From: a virus
Virus record (IMG/VR): IMGVR_UViG_3300034152_001291
Span: 60,704-124,703 of that record
Direction: 5' to 3' (one strand)
DNA: 64,000 nucleotides
The position numbers were made by a program, and so were the translations under genes. Numbering within the stretch: position 1 is the stretch's first letter; each line of letters begins with the position of its first letter. Below, in pieces: positions 24,931-50,150 of this stretch. The notes below the pieces were generated by a model that was not told where the DNA came from, made no database searches, and saw only the letters and a program-made list of their open reading frames with translations.

Positions 24931-26514
24931 TCATCGGGACGTCCCCGAACATGCTTGACGAACCTGAGCGATCCAACGAGCGGCATCGCCAGGGTCGCAC
25001 TGGACGATTTCATAGCCTCTGCTCCTATAGAACTTGACGTGGTTCTGGTGCTGGTGAACGAAGGTCTCCGTGCCCCGAATGATCGGATCGATGAGGATGG
25101 GACGGGACTTTCCCTCGACGTACCGCTCGATCCTGCCCCCGACCTGCTCCACCCTGTTGATGGGCATGCAGAACAGCGCCGCGTCCTTGTGCGGGGCGTT
25201 TATCGCATGCTCGGTGTTCTTGTAGGTCGTGAAGGTCATCTGCTTGGCGAGGCACGATGTCTTTTCCATCCCTCCAAAGAACAGGGAAGTCATCTCCTCC
25301 GGGATGCCCCGTCGCACGGACTCGTTTCGCAGGTCCTCCAGGTGGGCCTTGAACTTGGAGAAGATGAGAGCCTGGCGGCCATTCTCGTACAAGGCCCTGA
25401 TCAGGTAGAGCAGGCCCTCCCGGTAGAGAGGGTCCTCGACGAGGGCGTGCCACATGTCGTTGTAGTGGATCGAGTTTCCGGTTCCTTGCCACTCGCATTT
25501 CCCGTCGAGGGCGCAGAAGTCCCTGCATCGGGACTTGGTCATCGTCTTGTAGAGGTTCTGGCAAAAGAAGATCTTGTGATCCTCCTCGCTGATCCTGGCT
25601 TGGAGAGGAGTGTCCACCAAGAGGACGAAGGGGCTCATCCGTCTTCCTTCCACCTCGACGACGTTGGGTCCGAGCGTGTACTTGAAGATCCAGGAGAGCC
25701 TGTCGGGACGCTCGTCGGTCGCGGTGAGCCCGACCGAGTAGGAGAAGCAGAAATTGAAGATGCTTCTGATGAAGCTGTTGGCCGAGAATTTGTGGGCCTC
25801 GTCCACCACCAGGAGCCCGCACTCCACCGGGTTCGCCGGGTTCAGGTGCTTGAAGGCCGTCTGAGCCATGACAATGACGATGTTGCCTGAGAAGTCGACG
25901 TTGGACGGGGCCTCCCCTTCGATGCCGATTTTCTTTCTGATCCTGTTTTGGGTCGCCTTTGGCATCACGAACGAGATACGCGCCTGGGGAAGGAACCGCG
26001 TGATCTCCTCGGCCCACTGCTCCGCTACGTGGTTCTGGTCCACCAGGACGACCGACCGTCTCGATCCGAGTCTGGCAAGGAGATAGACGCCGATCACGGT
26101 TTTTCCGGAGCCGCACTTCCCACGGATGATCGCTCCCCTCCATTTCCGGAGCATCTCTACCGCGGCGTTCACGCCGGGAATCTGCTCGTCCCTGAGGCTT
26201 CCCTTGAACTCGATGGGCCTGTCGAGGTCGAGGCCCCGGAAGCAGACGGAGTCCGTCTCGTTCCTGATCTTGGTTTTGTTCCTGAGGTAGAGGTACTTGG
26301 GGACCAGACACCGGGTCTCGTCGAGGCTGTAGAAGACGGGAAAGGTCGTGGCCTTGCCGGGGGCCCGCTTGGATCGTCTTGGCTTGGCCACGAAGTGATC
26401 CATCCTCTGCTCGATACGTTTCCGAGGTACCTCGGCAAGGCCCCGGAATACGATCACTTGGTCAGGAGGGAGAGGATCGGAATTATCCCAGAGGGTTTTC
26501 TGTCTTTGACCCAT
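24931..26514 (-). CDS. SF2 DNA helicase (UvsW/ResIII-like)
   Basis: LRDEQ, GSGKT, DEAH, GLTAT, QVGGRIER. Confidence 0.88.
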   Translation of the reverse strand: MGQRQKTLWDNSDPLPPDQVIVFRGLAEVPRKRIEQRMDHFVAKPRRSKRAPGKATTFPVFYSLDETRCLVPKYLYLRNKTKIRNETDSVCFRGLDLDRPIEFKGSLRDEQIPGVNAAVEMLRKWRGAIIRGKCGSGKTVIGVYLLARLGSRRSVVLVDQNHVAEQWAEEITRFLPQARISFVMPKATQNRIRKKIGIEGEAPSNVDFSGNIVIVMAQTAFKHLNPANPVECGLLVVDEAHKFSANSFIRSIFNFCFSYSVGLTATDERPDRLSWIFKYTLGPNVVEVEGRRMSPFVLLVDTPLQARISEEDHKIFFCQNLYKTMTKSRCRDFCALDGKCEWQGTGNSIHYNDMWHALVEDPLYREGLLYLIRALYENGRQALIFSKFKAHLEDLRNESVRRGIPEEMTSLFFGGMEKTSCLAKQMTFTTYKNTEHAINAPHKDAALFCMPINRVEQVGGRIERYVEGKSRPILIDPIIRGTETFVHQHQNHVKFYRSRGYEIVQCDPGDAARWIAQVRQACSGTSR

Positions 26515-27152
26515 CTATTCATTTCCTGAACGGCTCTGATCAACCAGTCCTCGATTGTGGTCCCGGACTCCGGAGGGATCGTATCGTTGAACTCGGGGTG
26601 TTGATTTCCGAATCGGAGAACCTGACGGATTCCCTCGTTGGCCATCTCAGGGATCGGAGCAGGAGTCCTGTGCTTGAAGGGACGGCACACCTGGTAAGCG
26701 CCGACTCGACAGAAGATGGGGCGGCTTTTGTAGACGAGGCAGTGTCCCAGGAAAAAGGGACACCATTCGTTCTCTTCGGTCCACTCGAACTGGAAGAGGT
26801 CCGATTTCGGGGGATGGGCCCACGGCACGCCGTAGTCCCCGCAGAACCTCTTCCACTTCTCGAGCAAAGCGGCCGCCCGGTCCTCCACATGCTCGCGGAC
26901 CGGCCTGACCATCTTGGCGATCTCGTTTTCGAGGATGATCTTCTCGATCGGAGCGTAGAGGATGGGCATGCGCTTGCAGCAGTCCACGCACAGGCCACAA
27001 GAGTAGCCCATGCCCGCCAGGTCGTTCCGGCGCCAGTCCTCCGCCGTGGAGACGGCCGACAAGAACTCCTTGCGAATCTTGCTGAGGCGCTTGCCGGCGA
27101 TGTATTTGTACATCTTCTGGAGGGCGCGCGTCGTTTTCTTGATGTCGCTCAT
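26454..27152 (-). CDS. YkgJ-family Zn/Fe-chelating cysteine cluster protein
   Basis: CGLCVDCC...CPFFLGHCLVYKSRPIFCR. Confidence 0.75.
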   Translation of the reverse strand: MSDIKKTTRALQKMYKYIAGKRLSKIRKEFLSAVSTAEDWRRNDLAGMGYSCGLCVDCCKRMPILYAPIEKIILENEIAKMVRPVREHVEDRAAALLEKWKRFCGDYGVPWAHPPKSDLFQFEWTEENEWCPFFLGHCLVYKSRPIFCRVGAYQVCRPFKHRTPAPIPEMANEGIRQVLRFGNQHPEFNDTIPPESGTTIEDWLIRAVQEMNRWVKDRKPSGIIPILSLLTK

Positions 27153-43027: not shown

Positions 43028-43056
43028 AGTGTAAGCCGGGGGAGAGTGGCCGTCAA
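43028..43056 (-). promoter_or_regulatory. Sigma70-type promoter for replication operon
   Basis: TTGACG-17 nt-TACACT on minus strand. Confidence 0.7.
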
Positions 43057-43724
43057 TCCTTTTCGGAAAAAAGAATCGAGACGTACTCATTCCAGACGAA
43101 CATGCGGTGTCCACCCAGCACCTTGAGGTAGGTTGCCTGCGCCGTTTCGGAGTCCTTGAGAAGGAGAAGATGATCGGCGAAGACCGTGGTTCGGATCGAC
43201 TTCTCGACCGCCTTGTTCGTGAGCTGGAACGCGGCCTCGTCCGTGCCGGTTGTCGTCTTCTGTCGGAAGAAGAAGACGTAGCGCTCCGGGCCCGATTTCC
43301 GGCTCAGTGTTCTCGGGATTTCTCCCAGCACTCGGCGGGGATTGAACACGAGACCCTTCCTCTTCCTCCTCATGAGGGGGCAGGCCTTCTTGAGCGTGGG
43401 AGGAAGGGGGTCGTCCAGCGCCCGCTGGGACGGGCTGAAGAATTCGGGGCTCCAGAGTCGCACCGCGCCTCTCCCTTCGTTCAGGAACCAACCCTTGTGG
43501 CGGTAGACGTCGGTTTGGAAGAGGGATCGGACGGCCTTGGACATCGTGGCCATGTTTTCGAATCCGACATCCGCCTCCTGGCGCCCGGGTTTCAGGCGCC
43601 AGGAGAGGATGCGGAGGTACTTTTCCAGCTCGTCCTCCAGGTTCTCAGGGACCCGGCATCCCTCCTCCTCGAGAGTTTTCTTGAGATTGTCGAGGTCGAG
43701 AGAATCGACGAGTCTCTTCATCAC
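43053..43724 (-). CDS. Hypothetical protein
   Basis: AGGAG SD, GTGA overlap with upstream gene. Confidence 0.55.
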   Translation of the reverse strand: MMKRLVDSLDLDNLKKTLEEEGCRVPENLEDELEKYLRILSWRLKPGRQEADVGFENMATMSKAVRSLFQTDVYRHKGWFLNEGRGAVRLWSPEFFSPSQRALDDPLPPTLKKACPLMRRKRKGLVFNPRRVLGEIPRTLSRKSGPERYVFFFRQKTTTGTDEAAFQLTNKAVEKSIRTTVFADHLLLLKDSETAQATYLKVLGGHRMFVWNEYVSILFSEKD

Positions 43725-44869
43725 GAGTCTCCTGAGATGATCTGCGTCTTGAGGTCAGCGCCCTTTCCCGTTCTTGCGTCGAGGAGGTTCATGACCGGTT
43801 CGGCGAGTTCGATCTCCTTCGCTTTCTCTTCGATCTGCTTCGCGATACCGGCCAGGACTTTCTGCCGGACCGATCCCTTGATGGCGAGCATGACGGCGGG
43901 GTTGTAGGTGTGCTCCTTCATCGGGAGCTTGCAATGCGCGCACGGGACCGAGACGTCGATGCCGGTGCCGGTGCTCTTGAAGTGCTGAGGGCCTATTACG
44001 AAGGGGTGGGGACGGATGTGTCCGGAATACGAAGTAGGACCTGAGTAGGCCTGACGGACGCCGCGGAACTCCAGGTTCTCGGGCATCTCGACTTCGTGGC
44101 GGAGGATCACCTCGAAGTCTTGGTCGGTCATTTTCTTCTTGAGGGGACGGAGTCCCTCCTCCTTTCTCCTCTTTTGGTAGAGGTACCAGGCAAGGGAATC
44201 GTTGGTGAAGATCTCGATCTGCTTCTCCGTCTGCAAGCGGCGCACCCAGTCGAATGCCTTCGGGTCCTCGGCGATGCGCGTGGCGCGGCAATGGCGGTAG
44301 AGGAGCCCCGGCCCGGCGTTCACGTGGAGATTGCCGATACAGACGCCGGCGATTTCGAGGCGCCCCGAGATCCCGACTTGCAGACACGATTCGACCGCCT
44401 GCATGAGCCTCTCGGGTTCCCAGGATGGATCGACGGGCGTCGGGCTGTCGAAGTATCCCATCCACCAGGTCCGGTAGGGGGCGGGGGTTTTTCCGGTGTC
44501 GTGGCCGTAGAGGTTGAGGTCGAGGACGACTCCGTTCTTCTCCGCGTAGTCGCTCATCACGTTGACGGCCCAGGCCACGACTTCGTCGGGAAACGAGGAT
44601 CCCCTCGGATCCTCGTCCCTGACTCCGAGGTGCTGCTCGTAGAGGTCGAGGCAGTTGCCGGACGCACCGCAGGAGCTAAGGGAGAAGTAGTTTGCCATGA
44701 TCTGCATCTCCCCTTCGATCTCCACGCTGTTTTCGCTCTTCAGGACGGCCTTTGTCTCGCCTCTGTCCCCGACCCACACCCCGGATCTTTGCGTCAGAGA
44801 GGGCCTGTCGTCGGGCGGGATCGGGTGCTGCCAGACCAGCGTGCTGGCGTTGAGGTGATATTTCTTCAT
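43721..44869 (-). CDS. Hypothetical protein downstream of Ubl gene
   Basis: AAGGAGG SD; 382 aa; contains CAHC. Confidence 0.65.
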   Translation of the reverse strand: MKKYHLNASTLVWQHPIPPDDRPSLTQRSGVWVGDRGETKAVLKSENSVEIEGEMQIMANYFSLSSCGASGNCLDLYEQHLGVRDEDPRGSSFPDEVVAWAVNVMSDYAEKNGVVLDLNLYGHDTGKTPAPYRTWWMGYFDSPTPVDPSWEPERLMQAVESCLQVGISGRLEIAGVCIGNLHVNAGPGLLYRHCRATRIAEDPKAFDWVRRLQTEKQIEIFTNDSLAWYLYQKRRKEEGLRPLKKKMTDQDFEVILRHEVEMPENLEFRGVRQAYSGPTSYSGHIRPHPFVIGPQHFKSTGTGIDVSVPCAHCKLPMKEHTYNPAVMLAIKGSVRQKVLAGIAKQIEEKAKEIELAEPVMNLLDARTGKGADLKTQIISGDS

Positions 44870-44905: not shown

Positions 44906-45160
44906 CTATCCCTTCTCGTTGGCCGCCATCTTGAAGTGGACGTGCTGGCCGTCCTCGAGGACGGTGGAGCCGGACACGACGTCGCCGTCCACCAGGGCGA
45001 CCATCGACGCGGAGAGGTTCAGCTGGTCCGAGAGCCGGTTGCGGAGCTTCGAGACCGTGACGATTTCGCCCTCTTCGAACTCGACCGGGATTTCGGGGTA
45101 TTTCCGGAGGTCGTGGTCCTGCTCTCGGCCGACGGTGACTTTTCTGAGGAAGTCCGACAT
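44906..45160 (-). CDS. Ubiquitin-like (beta-grasp) protein ending EKG
   Basis: 84 aa; TVSKLR...LNL...ALVDG...VLEDGQHVHF...EKG; adjacent to E1, JAB and E2. Confidence 0.75.
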   Translation of the reverse strand: MSDFLRKVTVGREQDHDLRKYPEIPVEFEEGEIVTVSKLRNRLSDQLNLSASMVALVDGDVVSGSTVLEDGQHVHFKMAANEKG

Positions 45161-45873
45161 TTCTTCTTTCTCCTCAAGGAAGGACGTCTGAACGCCGTCA
45201 TCCTGGCACGCGCCAGGTCGAGGGCGATCTCGTTCTCCTTCGGTTTTTCTTCGGGATTCTCTTCCACGCGTTGGAGCATGATGGCCATGGCCAGGGCGGT
45301 GCCCCAGTTAGCCATCGCCGTCTGGCCCCCCGACGACACCAGGCATCCCCCGTCGCCGGGAAGCGCGCCGCTGTTCTGGAGGATTTCGGGAGCGATGTCC
45401 GAGATCTTGGGGGTTCTGTTCCTGTTTTTCCGGCGCCAGAAGATCTGGGCCTGGCCCGAGGTCTCCTCGTTGCCGCCGCAGATGAGGACGGCGTCCTTGA
45501 GCTTCTCGACCTCGGACTCGAGGAACACGCGGGTGGAGTTGTTGTCCACGCAGGCCAGGACGATGACGCCCTCCTTGAGCCAGACGGCCCGGTGGGTTTC
45601 GACGGTCCTCGTGTTCAGGAAGACCGGGACGGCGTGGATCAGGAGCGTTGTCGTTGAGAGCCGGGACTCGATGGCGCTCTTGGCGGCCTCGGCCTTGTTG
45701 GATCCGATCATGCTCTCGAACCACTGCCGGGACATGTTGGAGACTTCGATCTCGTCGCCGTCGATCAGGTACAGGTTGCAGGGCTCGTTCTTGGAGATCA
45801 GGTATCGCACCAGCCAGTCGTAGAGGTAGTTCGTGATCCCGCCACAGCCCACGATGGCGTACGAGTTCGGCAT
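45019..45873 (-). CDS. ThiF/E1-like activating enzyme
   Basis: VGCGG, IDGD.IE.SNMSRQ, NKA, CVDN..TR, GGNE, candidate catalytic Cys in GCL...Q..AN. Confidence 0.88.
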   Translation of the reverse strand: MPNSYAIVGCGGITNYLYDWLVRYLISKNEPCNLYLIDGDEIEVSNMSRQWFESMIGSNKAEAAKSAIESRLSTTTLLIHAVPVFLNTRTVETHRAVWLKEGVIVLACVDNNSTRVFLESEVEKLKDAVLICGGNEETSGQAQIFWRRKNRNRTPKISDIAPEILQNSGALPGDGGCLVSSGGQTAMANWGTALAMAIMLQRVEENPEEKPKENEIALDLARARMTAFRRPSLRRKKKCRTSSEKSPSAESRTTTSGNTPKSRSSSKRAKSSRSRSSATGSRTS

Positions 45874-45888
45874 GGTATTCCTTTCAAG

Positions 45889-47424
45889 TCAGGGTTCTTC
45901 GAGTTCGATGACCGTTCGGTACCTTTCGCACTGCGGACAGCCGTCTGTGTTTCCCAGGTAGTCCCAGCACGCCGGGCAGAATTCCGGAGGACCCTTGCGC
46001 TCGTTGCATGCCAGACAGAATCCGTCCTCGAGATGCTCGAGACAGAAGGCGCAGATGTTGCAGTGCCGGCAGTAGGTCGTCATCCCGTCGATCTCTTCGA
46101 AGGGCTCTCCGCACTTTGGGCAGACGCACTCGTTCTCGCATTTCCCGTCCTGCATCGGGAGGCCGCAGACAGGACATTCTTCCCACTCCTCGGTTTCGTC
46201 CTCGTCTTCCTCCTCTTCGGGAATGTCACGGTCGAGAACGTCCGTGTCCCTGTCCCACTCGTCGAGGTCGCTCTCGTCTTCGGGGACGTCGCGGTCGAGA
46301 ATATCCGCTGACATATTCCCGAGGAGGATGAGGCCCGAGGAGTGCCGGGTCTCGTGCTGGCGTCTCGTCAGCAGGCTCAGGATCTCGCTGTGGATCTCCC
46401 AGGCGAACTCTGCCGCGTCGCTGCCCTTGTCTTTCACCAGGTATTCCGCGATCTCGTAGGGGGAGGCTCCCCAGAGGACCTGACGGAGGCTTGCCTGGGC
46501 CGGGCTGGAGGATTCCGTCCTTCTGTACCCCAGGAACTCCTCCACATGGGCCGAGAATGAGTGCCTCTCTTGGAGGCTCTGGCAGGCCGCCTGGACGCGC
46601 CCGTAGGTGTTGCGCCAGTCCCCGGTCTTTTTCCTGGGAGGCTTGACCTCTTCGATGTCGAGAGTCTTTCCGGCCAACTCCTCCGCCTCTGCCCGGGTCT
46701 CGGTCCACTGGAGGATTCTGCCGCTGCCGTTCTTCACGAGGTAGCCCTTCTTCTTGGACCTGGCGAAGTCGAGGGTCTGGAATCCCTTGGTGAAGAAGGC
46801 GAACTCCTCGTCTTCCACCTTCACGGATTCGACCTCTTCTTTCGTGAAGGGCTGGACGTTGACGGAGATGCGCTGCCCTTCTCCGGCGAAAGAGGCCACG
46901 GCTTGCGGAATCTCGTTGCAGACGTATCCGAAGACGATGTGGATTCCGAGGCTTTCGAGATCGTCCCTGTCGTCCGTCGACGAGAAGAAGGCGCCCATGT
47001 GCGCGCCGTGGGAGTGGATCGTGCCGACGATGCTCCCAGAGATGTGGTAGTTGAGATCGCCGGGTCCGATTGCTCCGAAGTCCGCCTTGTCGAGCACGTA
47101 CCCGCCGTTCCGCCAGCGGAGGACGAGAATGAACTCGCTGTTCCATGTCTCAGCCGCTCTCCGGCAAACGTCGAGCGCCTTCAGGATGGTCTCGCGGGGA
47201 ACCGGGTCCGCCCTCTTGAGGAAGAGTCCGGGATTGATCTCGGGAAGGTCGGGGTTGAAGGTCTTCCGGACCGCGTAGGCCTCGACCGGAAGATCGGGCC
47301 CGCCGATCTTCACGATCTTGAAGACGCCGTTCGATCCGAGTGTGTAGTGGAGAGGACCTGCCGTCTTCTGGGCCTGCGAGACCGAAGAGACGATTGAGGG
47401 AGCATCCGGAAGGACGACTTTCAT
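45889..47424 (-). CDS. JAB/MPN+ metallopeptidase fused to acidic linker and multi-CxxC zinc-finger array
   Basis: E...GTIHSHGAHMGAFFSSTDDRDD; eight Cys pairs at C-terminus. Confidence 0.85.
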   Translation of the reverse strand: MKVVLPDAPSIVSSVSQAQKTAGPLHYTLGSNGVFKIVKIGGPDLPVEAYAVRKTFNPDLPEINPGLFLKRADPVPRETILKALDVCRRAAETWNSEFILVLRWRNGGYVLDKADFGAIGPGDLNYHISGSIVGTIHSHGAHMGAFFSSTDDRDDLESLGIHIVFGYVCNEIPQAVASFAGEGQRISVNVQPFTKEEVESVKVEDEEFAFFTKGFQTLDFARSKKKGYLVKNGSGRILQWTETRAEAEELAGKTLDIEEVKPPRKKTGDWRNTYGRVQAACQSLQERHSFSAHVEEFLGYRRTESSSPAQASLRQVLWGASPYEIAEYLVKDKGSDAAEFAWEIHSEILSLLTRRQHETRHSSGLILLGNMSADILDRDVPEDESDLDEWDRDTDVLDRDIPEEEEDEDETEEWEECPVCGLPMQDGKCENECVCPKCGEPFEEIDGMTTYCRHCNICAFCLEHLEDGFCLACNERKGPPEFCPACWDYLGNTDGCPQCERYRTVIELEEP

Positions 47425-47648
47425 GAGAATGCCTCCGTGAATTTCGAGTAGCAGGGGTCGTGACTGCGCTTTCGCCCGAGAACGATGCGCAGATGGGAGA
47501 CGAAGCTCCTTCCATGGAGAGCGTTTCCGAGGGGGCCCCTGGGCGGGCGTCCCTCCATGGCGCGACAGATCTCCGCCAGGGCATCGGACTCGTACTCGAT
47601 CTGCTCGCACTCCTGCATGGCGATCGCGAAGAGGTTGAAGTTTTTCAT
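47421..47648 (-). CDS. Small hypothetical protein inside Ubl cassette
   Basis: ATGA overlaps at both ends. Confidence 0.55.
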   Translation of the reverse strand: MKNFNLFAIAMQECEQIEYESDALAEICRAMEGRPPRGPLGNALHGRSFVSHLRIVLGRKRSHDPCYSKFTEAFS

Positions 47649-48313
47649 ATGAGTTCTCCGAACTTCAGGCTTGTCTGTAGCCACGACCACTGGCAGCACT
47701 GATGGGGGTCGTGGATGAGGTTCGACTCCTCCTCCCACTTGTCCATGATTTCTCCGACTCCTCTCGGACCTGCGTCCGGGGCGTACTCCCTTCCGAAGGG
47801 GTTGTAGGACAGGCTCTGGAGAATGTCCGAGTTGTATTTGGACGTGTCGAACTGGTGAATGACGACGAGAGGACGCTCGGCGAGCGGATAGGACTTCGTG
47901 GCCGACCCGAGATTGTCGGGCATGCAGACCTTTCCGCTTCTCTCCACGTTGGGGAGCGGGGCGTAGTAGAGGGGGTCCGACAGGTCCGACGCGAACTTCT
48001 TCATGAAGCGCAGGGTCGTCGACTGGCAGAAGCCGCCCGTAAACGACATCCGGAAGACGCGCCAGGGGACCGCGATGCGCCAGGAGCGGCTGCCGTAGAC
48101 CACCTCTATGAACTTCGGCGGGGTCATGACGGCGAAGATTTCTTCGGAGTTCGTCTTCTGGTAGGCCACGGTTCCGTATGGCAGGAGCGGGACGTGCACG
48201 CGTCTGGTCTGAATCTTTGCGAACAGGTGGGAGATGGATGTCTTCCTGACCCGGGTTACCGACAGCATTTCTGCGCTGTCTTCGTCCTCGGAGAGGAGGA
48301 TGATGTTCGGCAT
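47645..48313 (-). CDS. Prokaryotic E2-like enzyme (Prok-E2 family D / PRTRC protein B-like)
   Basis: PLYYAPLPNVERSGKVCM signature with catalytic Cys; F..S.YN; AGGAGG SD. Confidence 0.8.
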   Translation of the reverse strand: MPNIILLSEDEDSAEMLSVTRVRKTSISHLFAKIQTRRVHVPLLPYGTVAYQKTNSEEIFAVMTPPKFIEVVYGSRSWRIAVPWRVFRMSFTGGFCQSTTLRFMKKFASDLSDPLYYAPLPNVERSGKVCMPDNLGSATKSYPLAERPLVVIHQFDTSKYNSDILQSLSYNPFGREYAPDAGPRGVGEIMDKWEEESNLIHDPHQCCQWSWLQTSLKFGELI

Positions 48314-49359
48314 CGTTCGTTGGCCTCCTTCACCTGGTTGAACAAGGAGAGCAGGCGCTCGCCCTTCCTCGGGCTGAGCATGCTCACGTGGGCGATCTTG
48401 CCGCGCCACGTTTGGAAGGGGATCTCGCGGACCCGGTCCTTCATGAGGTTTCTCACCTCGTCGGCCTCGGGAGGCAAGGGATCCCCCACCCTGTGCCCTC
48501 GATACAGCGCGGACCTGATCATTTTCCGCGCCCCGTCCTCCAGGTAAAAACCTGCGGGAGAATTCCCCTCCCGCAGGTCGCACAGGGCGTTGAACATGTC
48601 GGCGCGCAGCGTGCGCCAGAATCTCCTCGGAGGTCCGATCCCCTCCTCGCTGATCTGGGCACCGCACACGACTCGAGAGGCCGGGCGCCGCTTGAATCTC
48701 GTTTTCTTCTCGTTGACGTAGAACCCGATCTCCTCGAGCACGTACTTGAGGATGAACTGGAGGTGGCGGACGTCGGGGTCATCCGACGCCAGCGTGATGT
48801 TGTCGCAGTAGATGGATAGTTTCGTCTGGTAGAGCGGGTTCGTCCGGGAGTTCACGGCGCCGATCAGCCGCGGCAGCATCTGCCACAGGACGGAGTGGGC
48901 CAGGACGGGAGAGGTCGGCGCTCCTTGGGGAAGGTACGTCGTTCTCCAAATCCGGGAGGCTCGGTAGGTCGACACCCGCACGGGAGTCTTCTTTTTCGTC
49001 CGGAAGCAGGTTCGGCTGATCTCCTCGATGAGTCCGTCCGGGACGGACAGGTGTACCAGCGCGGCCGTCACCATGGATCTCGTGACCGATCCGAAGAAGT
49101 CCTTGATGTCCATCTGCAAGATGCAGGAGGGGACGTGCTGCCCTTCAGGGTCGTCGAGGAGAAGCGCCTCCGCGTTGGTCCGGATGTTCTTCTTCCTGGA
49201 GTAGGCGTGCAGGTACTTCGAGTACCTGACGTAGGGTTGGAGCCTCTTGGCGAGCTCCTTTTGTCGGTTCTTGAGATCTCGGGACGGGACCTCGATCACT
49301 CGTCGTCCGCCCCCTTTCTTGGGGATCTCGATTCTGCGGTACCGGTTTCGAGTTGCCAT
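48256..49359 (-). CDS. Retron-like reverse transcriptase with atypical YCDN motif
   Basis: Y..IEIPKKGGG.R.I.VP, LK..Q, NA, MDIKDFFGSV, LPQGAPTSP, YCDN, F.VN.KK, VCG. Confidence 0.88.
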   Translation of the reverse strand: MATRNRYRRIEIPKKGGGRRVIEVPSRDLKNRQKELAKRLQPYVRYSKYLHAYSRKKNIRTNAEALLLDDPEGQHVPSCILQMDIKDFFGSVTRSMVTAALVHLSVPDGLIEEISRTCFRTKKKTPVRVSTYRASRIWRTTYLPQGAPTSPVLAHSVLWQMLPRLIGAVNSRTNPLYQTKLSIYCDNITLASDDPDVRHLQFILKYVLEEIGFYVNEKKTRFKRRPASRVVCGAQISEEGIGPPRRFWRTLRADMFNALCDLREGNSPAGFYLEDGARKMIRSALYRGHRVGDPLPPEADEVRNLMKDRVREIPFQTWRGKIAHVSMLSPRKGERLLSLFNQVKEANERCRTSSSSPRTKTAQKCCR

Positions 49360-49360
49360 G

Positions 49361-49402
49361 CTACAACGCTGCCAACAGGGCCTTGAGAACCGCCAGGATC
49401 AT
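49361..49402 (-). CDS. 13-aa hydrophobic leader peptide MILAVLKALLAAL
   Basis: AAGGAGG SD 5 nt before ATG; stop lies 1 nt before RT start. Confidence 0.5.
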   Translation of the reverse strand: MILAVLKALLAAL

Positions 49403-49424
49403 CGCCGCCTCCTTTCTTCAAAAA

Positions 49425-49560
49425 CCGTGGAAAGCCAGAGGTGGACAAGGGGGAGGGAGACACGGTGCCATTCGGTCGCGTCTCCTCCCCCTTGTCCTTG
49501 GAGGAGTAAAAGCCCAGAGAGGAAGAGGCGGGGGCCCACAGATGTGAGCCCCCGCCCGCC
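49425..49560 (-). ncRNA. Candidate RT-associated structured RNA (msr/msd-like)
   Basis: 13-bp hairpin 49527-49556 and 21-bp hairpin 49443-49497; mismatches become G-U pairs on the minus strand. Confidence 0.5.
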
Positions 49561-49562
49561 GT

Positions 49563-50063
49563 CTAGTCCTCGATCTCCTCCTCGACCTCCTCCTCGACCT
49601 CCTCCTCGACCTCCTCCTCGACCTCCTCCTCGGCCCCTCCTCGGCGGTAGAAGGCCTTTTCGGCCCTCTCCCACCGTTTGGAGGCCCGTCTCTCCGCGCC
49701 CTTCGGGACGCGGAAGCCGGCCTCCTCGAGGAGGCTCTTGGCCTCCTCGACCGAAGCGGGAATCTCGAGCGAGACGTCGTCCCACTCGAAATCCGAGGGG
49801 ATTTTGAGGTTATAGGCCGTCAGGGCGACCGCGAGCGCGGCGGCCCTGACGGGGTTTTCGTCGACGCCTGGGACGGCGTCGACGCGGGCGAGGGCGGCGG
49901 GGGAGGGCTCGAAGGGAGCCCCCTCTCCCCGACGCCATGCGTCGAGGACGAAGCCGGCTGTGAAGCCGGCTCCGAGGCCAACTCCGAGGCCGATTGCGGC
50001 TCCGACCGCGCCCATGTTGGCGCGGTCCTCCTCTGTGTCCTTTTTGAATTTGAAGAGTCTCAC
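49563..50063 (-). CDS. Membrane-anchored protein with (EEEV)n acidic tail
   Basis: AGGAGG SD before GTG; Gly-zipper hydrophobic segment. Confidence 0.65.
   Translation of the reverse strand: MRLFKFKKDTEEDRANMGAVGAAIGLGVGLGAGFTAGFVLDAWRRGEGAPFEPSPAALARVDAVPGVDENPVRAAALAVALTAYNLKIPSDFEWDDVSLEIPASVEEAKSLLEEAGFRVPKGAERRASKRWERAEKAFYRRGGAEEEVEEEVEEEVEEEVEEEIED
49576..49632. repeat. 12-bp tandem repeat encoding EEEV
   Basis: (CTCCTCGACCTC)n visible. Confidence 0.8.
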
Positions 50064-50150
50064 GACTCCTCCTTTCTGCCGGCTCCTCAGCCGGCACCTC
50101 TGGCGAACAGGGATCCGCTGCGCACACGCGCAAATTACGACCCTGTTCAC

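Follow-up and report, generated by a model that had tools for sequence, protein, structure and literature searches.

The stretch of DNA analysed here (the window) comprises 64,000 nucleotides (nt) and corresponds to bases 60704-124703 of the 124.7-kb IMG/VR virus record IMGVR_UViG_3300034152_001291. Its minus strand carries a cassette of genes coding for a ThiF-type E1, an E2-like protein, a JAB/JAMM peptidase protein and a small glycine-ended protein, the candidate ubiquitin-like (Ubl) tag, together with a retron-type reverse transcriptase (RT). Read along the minus strand, the order is a 195-amino-acid (aa) open reading frame (ORF), a structured gap of 203 nt, and the genes for RT, E2, a 75-aa ORF, JAB, E1, tag, a 382-aa ORF and a 223-aa ORF. 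They are followed by a gene for a helix-turn-helix protein resembling replication initiators and then by replication genes, the cassette being the head of the leftward early/replication operon of the phage. The cassette probably constitutes a module for ubiquitin-like protein conjugation that is carried by the phage and belongs to the PRTRC kind (operon type 6d). A first-pass annotation of the window, made from its letters without database searches, had proposed a complete E1-E2-JAB-Ubl set with intact motifs. At sequence level this proposal is upheld, with the catalytic residues conserved, and the positions that it gave for the Ubl, E1, JAB, 75-aa, E2 and 382-aa ORFs were all confirmed.

The virus record is linear and its completeness is estimated by CheckV at 63%. 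PHROG matches near the cassette include DNA polymerase, primase, a DnaB-like helicase, ribonucleotide reductase, a UvsX-like recombinase and a RuvC-like resolvase, as well as two sigma factors and a weak tail-sheath match, a set of neighbours that reads as that of a large tailed phage. The DNA comes from a virus record of IMG/VR and the cassette is flanked by replication and tail genes of a phage, so the description of the genes as phage-encoded stands. A search of IMG/VR with the DNA polymerase of the phage found no close relative.

Real reading frames were chosen by the GC content of the three codon positions (about 0.58/0.42/0.85 for the long genes of this genome of 61% GC). By this measure the amino-terminal extensions of E2 and JAB in the ORF list have a non-coding pattern. 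The 3' end of the RT gene overlaps the start of the E2 gene by 58 nt, while ATGA overlaps join the E2 stop to the start of the 75-aa ORF and the stop of the latter to the start of JAB. Shine-Dalgarno sites are found ahead of E2, JAB, the tag and the 382-aa ORF. RT, E2, the 75-aa ORF and JAB are thus chained by overlaps and Shine-Dalgarno sites, as are the 382-aa and 223-aa ORFs, and both the 75-aa and the 382-aa ORFs are translationally coupled to the cassette.

The E1 is encoded by a 284-aa ORF (45019..45873, minus strand) whose candidate catalytic residue is Cys177 (45343-45345). It matches Pfam ThiF (3.4e-16, 59.6 bits, cut-off 28.1), and its top NCBIfam match is PRTRC_ThiF (TIGR03736; 6.9e-10, 38.7 bits, cut-off 144.75). 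Sequence neighbours in the PDB are UBA5, MccB, MoeB and Uba4 (E 5e-4 to 9e-3). Five closer homologues, with 65-38% identity, were compared with the window E1. G9-x-G11-G12, D38, N46/R49/Q50, K60, D110-N111, R115 and C177 are invariant in these six proteins, and an alignment of six phage E1s likewise shows no variation at C177, D110 or R115. The nucleotide-binding motif and the candidate cysteine noticed in the first-pass annotation are thereby sustained. From general knowledge of MoeB/ThiF/E1 enzymes, the conserved residues presumably include those for ATP binding, the Mg-binding aspartate and the thioester cysteine. The ThiF profile stops near residue 240, which is probably also the end of the functional domain.

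The E2-like protein of 222 aa (47645..48313, minus strand), tentatively assigned to the Prok-E2_D/PRTRC_B family, starts at an ATG preceded by an AAGGAGG Shine-Dalgarno site. Its candidate catalytic residue is Cys130 (47924-47926), in the motif PLPN-x5-G-x-x-C, and the surrounding stretch reads PLPNVERSGKVC. An exhaustive HMMER search with this protein returned 59 proteins, counting the query, at E<=1e-3; of these, 50 were aligned. The nine left out as long or multi-stretch sequences are P0008, P0018, P0025, P0032, P0035, P0041, P0044, P0052 and P0055; four of them match Prok-E2_D. Among the 50 aligned members C130 is invariant and N122 is conserved in at least 90% (LPN-x5-G-x-x-C), in the region of the PN..G.VC motif of the first-pass annotation. 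Half of the aligned relatives (25/50, best 1.6e-20) match Prok-E2_D and 17/50 match PRTRC_B (TIGR03737, best 1.2e-16). The window E2 itself has no match to PRTRC_B in the NCBIfam scan at E<=0.1. The 50-member alignment was too diverse for a pattern scan.

The JAB/JAMM peptidase protein has 511 aa (45889..47424, minus strand), organized as a JAB core, an acidic stretch and a tail with 16 cysteines (C417-C499; 45928-46176). Core residues are E97, H137-x-H139, S148 and D151, the motif lying at 46972-47016; the upstream glutamate, E97 in NSEFILVL, was placed by alignment by eye. The match to Pfam Prok-JAB (8.1e-6, 26.1 bits) is barely over the cut-off of 25. The HSH...S..D motif reported in the first-pass annotation proved to be conserved, H137-S-H139, S148 and D151 being invariant in all seven aligned JABs. 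The spacer between the second histidine and the serine is one residue longer in the window protein than in the six others.

The 16-cysteine tail is found in one of the seven JABs compared, that of the window, and appears to be one of two new points of this cassette. Its first eight cysteines are arranged as C-x2-C-x8-C-x3-C-x-C-x2-C-x13-C-x2-C, which looks by eye like a C4C4 RING. A Pfam scan of the whole protein gave no match for the tail, and a PDB sequence search gave repeated weak C2H2 look-alikes.

The candidate tag is a ThiS/MoaD-like protein of 84 aa (44906..45160, minus strand) that ends in ...NEKG followed by a TAG stop. Its gene has its own GAGGAG Shine-Dalgarno site and the strongest coding signature of the cassette (codon-position GC 0.66/0.32/0.91). 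The glycine lies directly before the stop, as the first-pass annotation had pointed out, and with this free terminal residue trimming of a precursor would be unneeded. The ESM Atlas holds a model of this exact sequence (pLDDT 0.72, pTM 0.66) whose nearest structures are ThiS/MoaD, Ub-Mut7C and RnfH clusters, with TM 0.76/0.77 over 81 residues for a cluster that is 100% ThiS. A feature search in the Atlas gave 0.90 for a cluster with ThiS in 19% of its members. The Atlas results were counted as one source and as leads only. A poor AlphaFold single-sequence model (pLDDT 62) has a strand, a helix and three strands, an order fitting the beta-grasp. A beta-grasp fold is likely on the Atlas model.

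The E1 ORF and the tag gene overlap by 142 nt in different frames (45019-45160, about the last 47 codons of the E1 ORF). Over this overlap the coding pattern is in the tag frame, while the E1 frame has a non-coding one (GC 0.29/0.83/0.65). Open runs of at least 47 codons occur in that alternative frame in 56 of 202 runs over 14 window genes, and the tails of E1 homologues are rich in K/R/S and variable in length. The E1 tail past about residue 240 would most simply be read-through, compatible with chance. A -1 shift near GAGGAGAAAGAAGAAATG would fuse E1 to the tag, but there is no need to invoke programmed frameshifting of this kind, because an open overlap is common by chance and homologue tail lengths vary.

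The RT of 367 aa (48256..49359, minus strand) matches Pfam RVT_1 (1.3e-19). Its best matches are to retron and defence RT models, PADLOC RT_III-A (3.7e-36) and NCBIfam retron_St85_RT (4.2e-32; 111.6 bits, under the cut-off of 235). Motif C reads YCDN (48799-48810, residues 184-187) in place of the catalytic YxDD, the second catalytic aspartate being replaced, and polymerase activity of the RT is therefore doubtful. Upstream of the gene lies the structured gap (49360..49562, minus strand), 203 nt with two strong hairpins whose 14-nt arms are perfect or near-perfect (49443-49456/49484-49497 and 49527-49540/49543-49556). The predicted fold of the gap has -119.1 kcal/mol and a z score of -4.58, as good as none of 200 shuffles, and a search of Rfam gave no family at gathering score. 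The hairpins possibly correspond to a retron-type non-coding RNA or to the terminator of the preceding 195-aa gene.

A similar arrangement is found in a distant relative, the 3.8-kb metagenome contig L005. It carries an RT with the motif YADD, aligned to YCDN of the window RT, an E2 gene overlapping that of the RT by 19 nt, a small ORF at the position equivalent to the 75-aa ORF, JAB and the start of E1. Identity is 29% between the two RTs (E 2e-24) and only 23% between the two E2s. Overlap of the RT with the start of E2 is thus found in both loci of this branch with readable upstream DNA (2/2, the window and L005), and in the gene arrangement it appears as a new point of this cassette. The L005 JAB (L005:2175-3656) has a CxxC...CxxC insert directly ahead of its HSH motif, at a different place from the cysteine tail of the window protein.

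Related cassettes are present in cultured phages. A tblastn search with E1 hit 8 of 50,697 GenBank phage records. The order E2_D-JAB-ThiF was found in Vibrio phage D69, Salmonella phage Arash and Bacillus phage KLEB27-3 by Pfam scans and annotations, and in D181 and D148 by tblastn. In Bacillus phage WH1 JAB-ThiF was detected; its gp214 is similar by eye to the E2 of KLEB27-3, although Pfam gave no E2_D match for it. KLEB27-3 gp195 is annotated as 'PRTRC_A domain-containing'. Comparison of the cassettes of Arash (gp248c-gp246c), Vibrio phages D69, D181 and D148, and Bacillus phages KLEB27-3, WH1 and Edson with that of the window shows the same enzyme order and motifs, with proteins of 20-30% identity. 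The window E2 family aligns by hhalign with the E2 of D69 (95.9%, 5.4e-9) and with that of Arash (98.0%, 2e-13). Unlike the window JAB, those of the cultured phages lack the cysteine-rich tail, and an RT, present in the window, was not found among the upstream genes scanned in D69, Arash and WH1 (KLEB27-3 gp197 was outside the scan). The RT is therefore not universal in such cassettes.

Phage D69 codes for a 263-aa protein (L003:379-1170) with three tandem repeats, each ending in ...TGTKG, plus five extra residues. From its organization it resembles a precursor of the cassette tag in the manner of polyubiquitin. Its five-residue tail would need a peptidase such as JAB, whereas the window tag is a single unit. 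After trypsin, both the window tag (...EKG) and the D69 repeats (...TKG) would be expected to leave one glycine on a modified lysine. The window tag and each of the three repeats share, by eye, the pattern [IV]x[IV]xGRE ... F....KG-end; similarity between the tag and the repeat protein was not detected by BLASTP.

In the Arash GenBank record (L006:1519-4539) the E1 and E2-like proteins are labelled 'structural protein', while the JAB protein gp247c encoded between them is not. In the part of the Arash paper available, this label denotes proteins for which mass spectrometry of phage preparations gave two or more unique peptides, and 116 proteins were so detected, including RNA polymerase and ribonucleotide reductase (PMC10585845). 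The label therefore indicates that relatives of these proteins are made; it bears on expression, not on function. The eighth GenBank record is L004 (MT835919), an unverified gut contig named 'Bacteriophage sp.', in which JAB-ThiF is followed by a gene for a DnaN-like clamp and one for a DUF6094 methyltransferase (E 8.5e-174), a neighbourhood that perhaps belongs to a conjugative element and not to a phage.

Further searches were without yield. No related locus was found in viral_contigs with the window E2, P0002, P0003, P0063, P0070 or the DNA polymerase as queries, in metagenome_contigs with P0002 or in genome_contigs with P0009. P0070 gave in genome_contigs only matches to the Rossmann start, in four bacterial metagenome-assembled genomes. 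The window E2, the window JAB and P0063 had no tblastn match among GenBank phages, where the matches of the tag were at chance level (best E 0.4), and P0063 had no match among plasmids.

PRTRC (ParB-Related, ThiF-Related Cassette; NCBIfam TIGR03734-03742) is presumed here to be the same as operon type 6d, an equation made by setting the description of that type beside the TIGRFAM descriptions. The window cassette shares with it separate genes for a glycine-ended tag, a cysteine-bearing E2-like protein, a JAB and a ThiF-type E1, and a location on mobile DNA; the top NCBIfam matches of its E1 and JAB are PRTRC_ThiF and PRTRC_A. These are the components given for the fourth operon type (6d), the best fit among the types compared, in the accessible portion of the work of Iyer, Burroughs and Aravind (2006), which lists a small glycine-ended tag, a separate cysteine-bearing E2-like protein, a JAB, an E1 and mobile DNA (PMC1779556). 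The window cassette differs in that it sits in the replication operon of a large phage and adds the retron-type RT and the 16-cysteine JAB tail. It is best described as PRTRC-like rather than as a full member, because every PRTRC match is under cut-off and PRTRC_parB, PRTRC_C and PRTRC_E are unmatched.

Comparison of gene content indicates that the cassette is neither Bil nor CBASS. The chemistry expected by analogy with Bil and Cap2/Cap3 is the same: adenylation by E1, formation of cysteine thioesters by both E1 and E2, and removal of conjugates by a JAB. Bil, which the text available assigns to operon type 6c, has an E1 of several domains and an E2 of the CEHH type (PMC10557695). Of the PADLOC Bil models only BilD gave a match, on E1 and at E 0.0018, while E2, JAB and tag were unmatched. 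Cap2 is an E2-E1 fusion, whereas the window E1 and E2 are encoded by separate genes 2.4 kb apart. Matches of PADLOC Cap2 models to the window E1 are confined to its Rossmann start (residues 6-72), in a comparison of which a CD-NTase search was not part. Bub is likewise a diverged bacterial E1/E2/Ubl set of mobile elements. The accessible text describes it as type 6e, which forms Tyr/Ser oxyesters and is without catalytic cysteines (PMC11601596); the window enzymes differ from Bub (6e/DUF6527) in their invariant E1 C177 and E2 C130, and the DUF6527 serine protease had no match in the Pfam scans of the cassette.

Taken together, the gene set most likely codes for a working tag-conjugation system that is used early in infection and whose JAB reverses the conjugates. 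The ThiF-type E1 would adenylate the carboxyl-terminal Gly84 of the tag and take the tag onto Cys177. The tag would then move to Cys130 of the E2-like protein and from there to lysines of one or more targets, possibly of either phage or host origin. These conjugates would be reversed or edited by the JAB metallopeptidase. The RT and the small ORFs, predicted to be co-translated with the module, probably work with it.

Several observations weigh against this reading. The E2-like protein itself reaches only E 0.008 and 16.4 bits against Pfam Prok-E2_D (cut-off 25) and is thus sub-threshold, and the match of JAB to PRTRC_A (TIGR03735; 1.6e-8, 34.4 bits, cut-off 101.8) covers profile positions 136-188 of 192. 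PRTRC_parB (TIGR03734), PRTRC_C (TIGR03738) and PRTRC_E (TIGR03741) gave no match at E<=1 in the 124.7-kb record, which represents about 63% of the genome; the PRTRC_C search of the record was made in six frames, and the NCBIfam scan gave no PRTRC_C match to the 84-aa tag ORF at E<=0.1. Proteins D and F (TIGR03739, TIGR03742) did not turn up in the NCBIfam scan of nine cassette ORFs (E<=0.1), no record-wide search for them having been made. The tag has no family or sequence relative in Pfam, PHROG, PADLOC, NCBIfam (E<=0.1) or the homologue search. Foldseek with its AlphaFold model found nothing on the PDB at E<=1e-3, and VIA gave a best Z of 4.6 with unrelated folds on top and ubiquitin-like entries at Z 3.1-3.3. 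The beta-grasp assignment of the tag is thus favoured by the likeness of the Atlas model to ThiS/MoaD and left without a clear match by the AlphaFold model of pLDDT 62. No experimental study of PRTRC/type 6d was found in the literature. Lastly, what is observed are genes, their order, coupling, kinship and conserved catalytic residues, and it is from these that the chemical steps, the fold of the tag and its target are deduced.

Other roles can be envisaged for the cassette. The nearest structural neighbours of the tag are ThiS/MoaD clusters and the sequence neighbours of E1 include ThiF, MoeB and Uba4, as would be the case if E1 only turned a ThiS/MoaD-like protein into a thiocarboxylate for thiolation and no protein were conjugated. 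This is very improbable given the conservation, beside E1, of an E2-like protein with an invariant cysteine and of a JAB peptidase; moreover, no rhodanese or other sulfurtransferase domain was matched on E1 and its neighbours. According to the accessible part of the original description, E1s of these operon types never carry a rhodanese (PMC1779556). The first-pass annotation had favoured JAB as a deconjugase, acting either on conjugates of the phage itself or on those made by host Bil or CBASS (Cap2) systems. Reversal of its own conjugates is plausible. Stripping of host conjugates, or early tagging and disabling of a host immune protein by the cassette, would agree with the location in an early operon and with a tag that needs no processing, so that JAB has no maturation job here, and a phage peptidase undoing host tagging makes biological sense. 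A counter-defence role of this type is nevertheless quite unlikely: JAB has no specific kinship to Cap3 or BilC and is unmatched in PADLOC, a peptidase acting solely as deconjugase would have no use for an E1, an E2 and a tag encoded beside it, and in every related cassette JAB is a cognate partner. The proposal that it removes host Bil/Cap2 conjugates has no specific support, as the window JAB resembles PRTRC_A and, from its position in the conserved triad of related loci, appears to be the cognate member of an E2-JAB-E1 set.

The presence of the RT raises two further possibilities. By analogy with Bil, which tags phage tail proteins, the cassette might exclude competing phages or mobile elements, with the RT and the upstream RNA as sensor and the Ubl machinery as effector. 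The affinity of the RT for retron and defence models, the recurrence of the RT-E2 overlap in L005 and the strong structured region upstream of the RT speak for such a system, as does the fact that the characterised bacterial E1/E2/JAB systems all act in phage defence, as far as the available text of one account goes (PMC11601596). Exclusion of competitors is unlikely all the same, as the cassette heads the replication operon and is not a moron-like island, cultured lytic phages infecting three groups of hosts have retained versions without RT, the linkage to the RT is based on two loci only, and motif C makes polymerase activity doubtful. It is also conceivable, but again rather doubtful, that the RT and the tagging enzymes form one machine, an undescribed RT-coupled ubiquitin-like system. 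In it the RT, perhaps catalytically altered as YCDN would suggest, and the upstream RNA would guide or trigger tagging, and the cysteine tail of JAB, as a RING-like zinc module, would serve as E3.

The remaining ORFs of the operon gave few clues. The 75-aa ORF (47421..47648, minus strand) has a coding-like codon-position GC of 0.57/0.45/0.79 and no significant family in Pfam, PHROG, PADLOC or NCBIfam, its sole sub-threshold match being DNAX_ATPase_lid (E 0.083). The 382-aa ORF (43721..44869, minus strand), which starts with a strong Shine-Dalgarno site 36 nt past the Ubl stop, is likewise without significant family in these four databases (sole sub-threshold match NCBIfam NF007454, E 0.078). 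The ESM Atlas gave nothing usable for it (pLDDT 0.34, best feature score 0.89). The first-pass annotation had put both forward as candidate substrates or adaptors; no similarity was found between these two ORFs and those at matching positions in D69 or L005. The 223-aa ORF (43053..43724, minus strand) has a 4-nt start/stop overlap with the 382-aa ORF and is next to the putative replication initiator gene; no significant family was found in PHROG, PADLOC or NCBIfam (sole sub-threshold match NCBIfam S18, E 0.09). At the head of the operon the product of the 195-aa ORF (49563-50150) features a Gly/Ala-rich hydrophobic stretch and a carboxyl-terminal (EEEV)n acidic repeat, and no family was found for it. 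Among the replication genes, a 232-aa protein (26454-27152) has a CxxCxxCC putative zinc-/iron-chelating domain (1.4e-5). No sliding-clamp family turned up among the replication genes of the window, and no convincing clamp-binding end was seen by eye.

The other operon types for which experiments were found, CBASS type II, Bil (6c) and Bub (6e), have a known or presumed role in phage defence, according to the accessible text of one source (PMC11601596). Copies carried by phages turn the question round to what a virus gains from tagging proteins, and the cultured relatives in Arash, D69 and the Bacillus phages make this question testable. The window cassette offers two handles beyond those of the cultured phages: the coupled RT, and the cysteine-rich JAB tail, which could be the missing part that chooses substrates. 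If the RT-coupled machine with a RING-like tail were real, this would be a virus with a full set of E1, E2, E3 and deubiquitinase.

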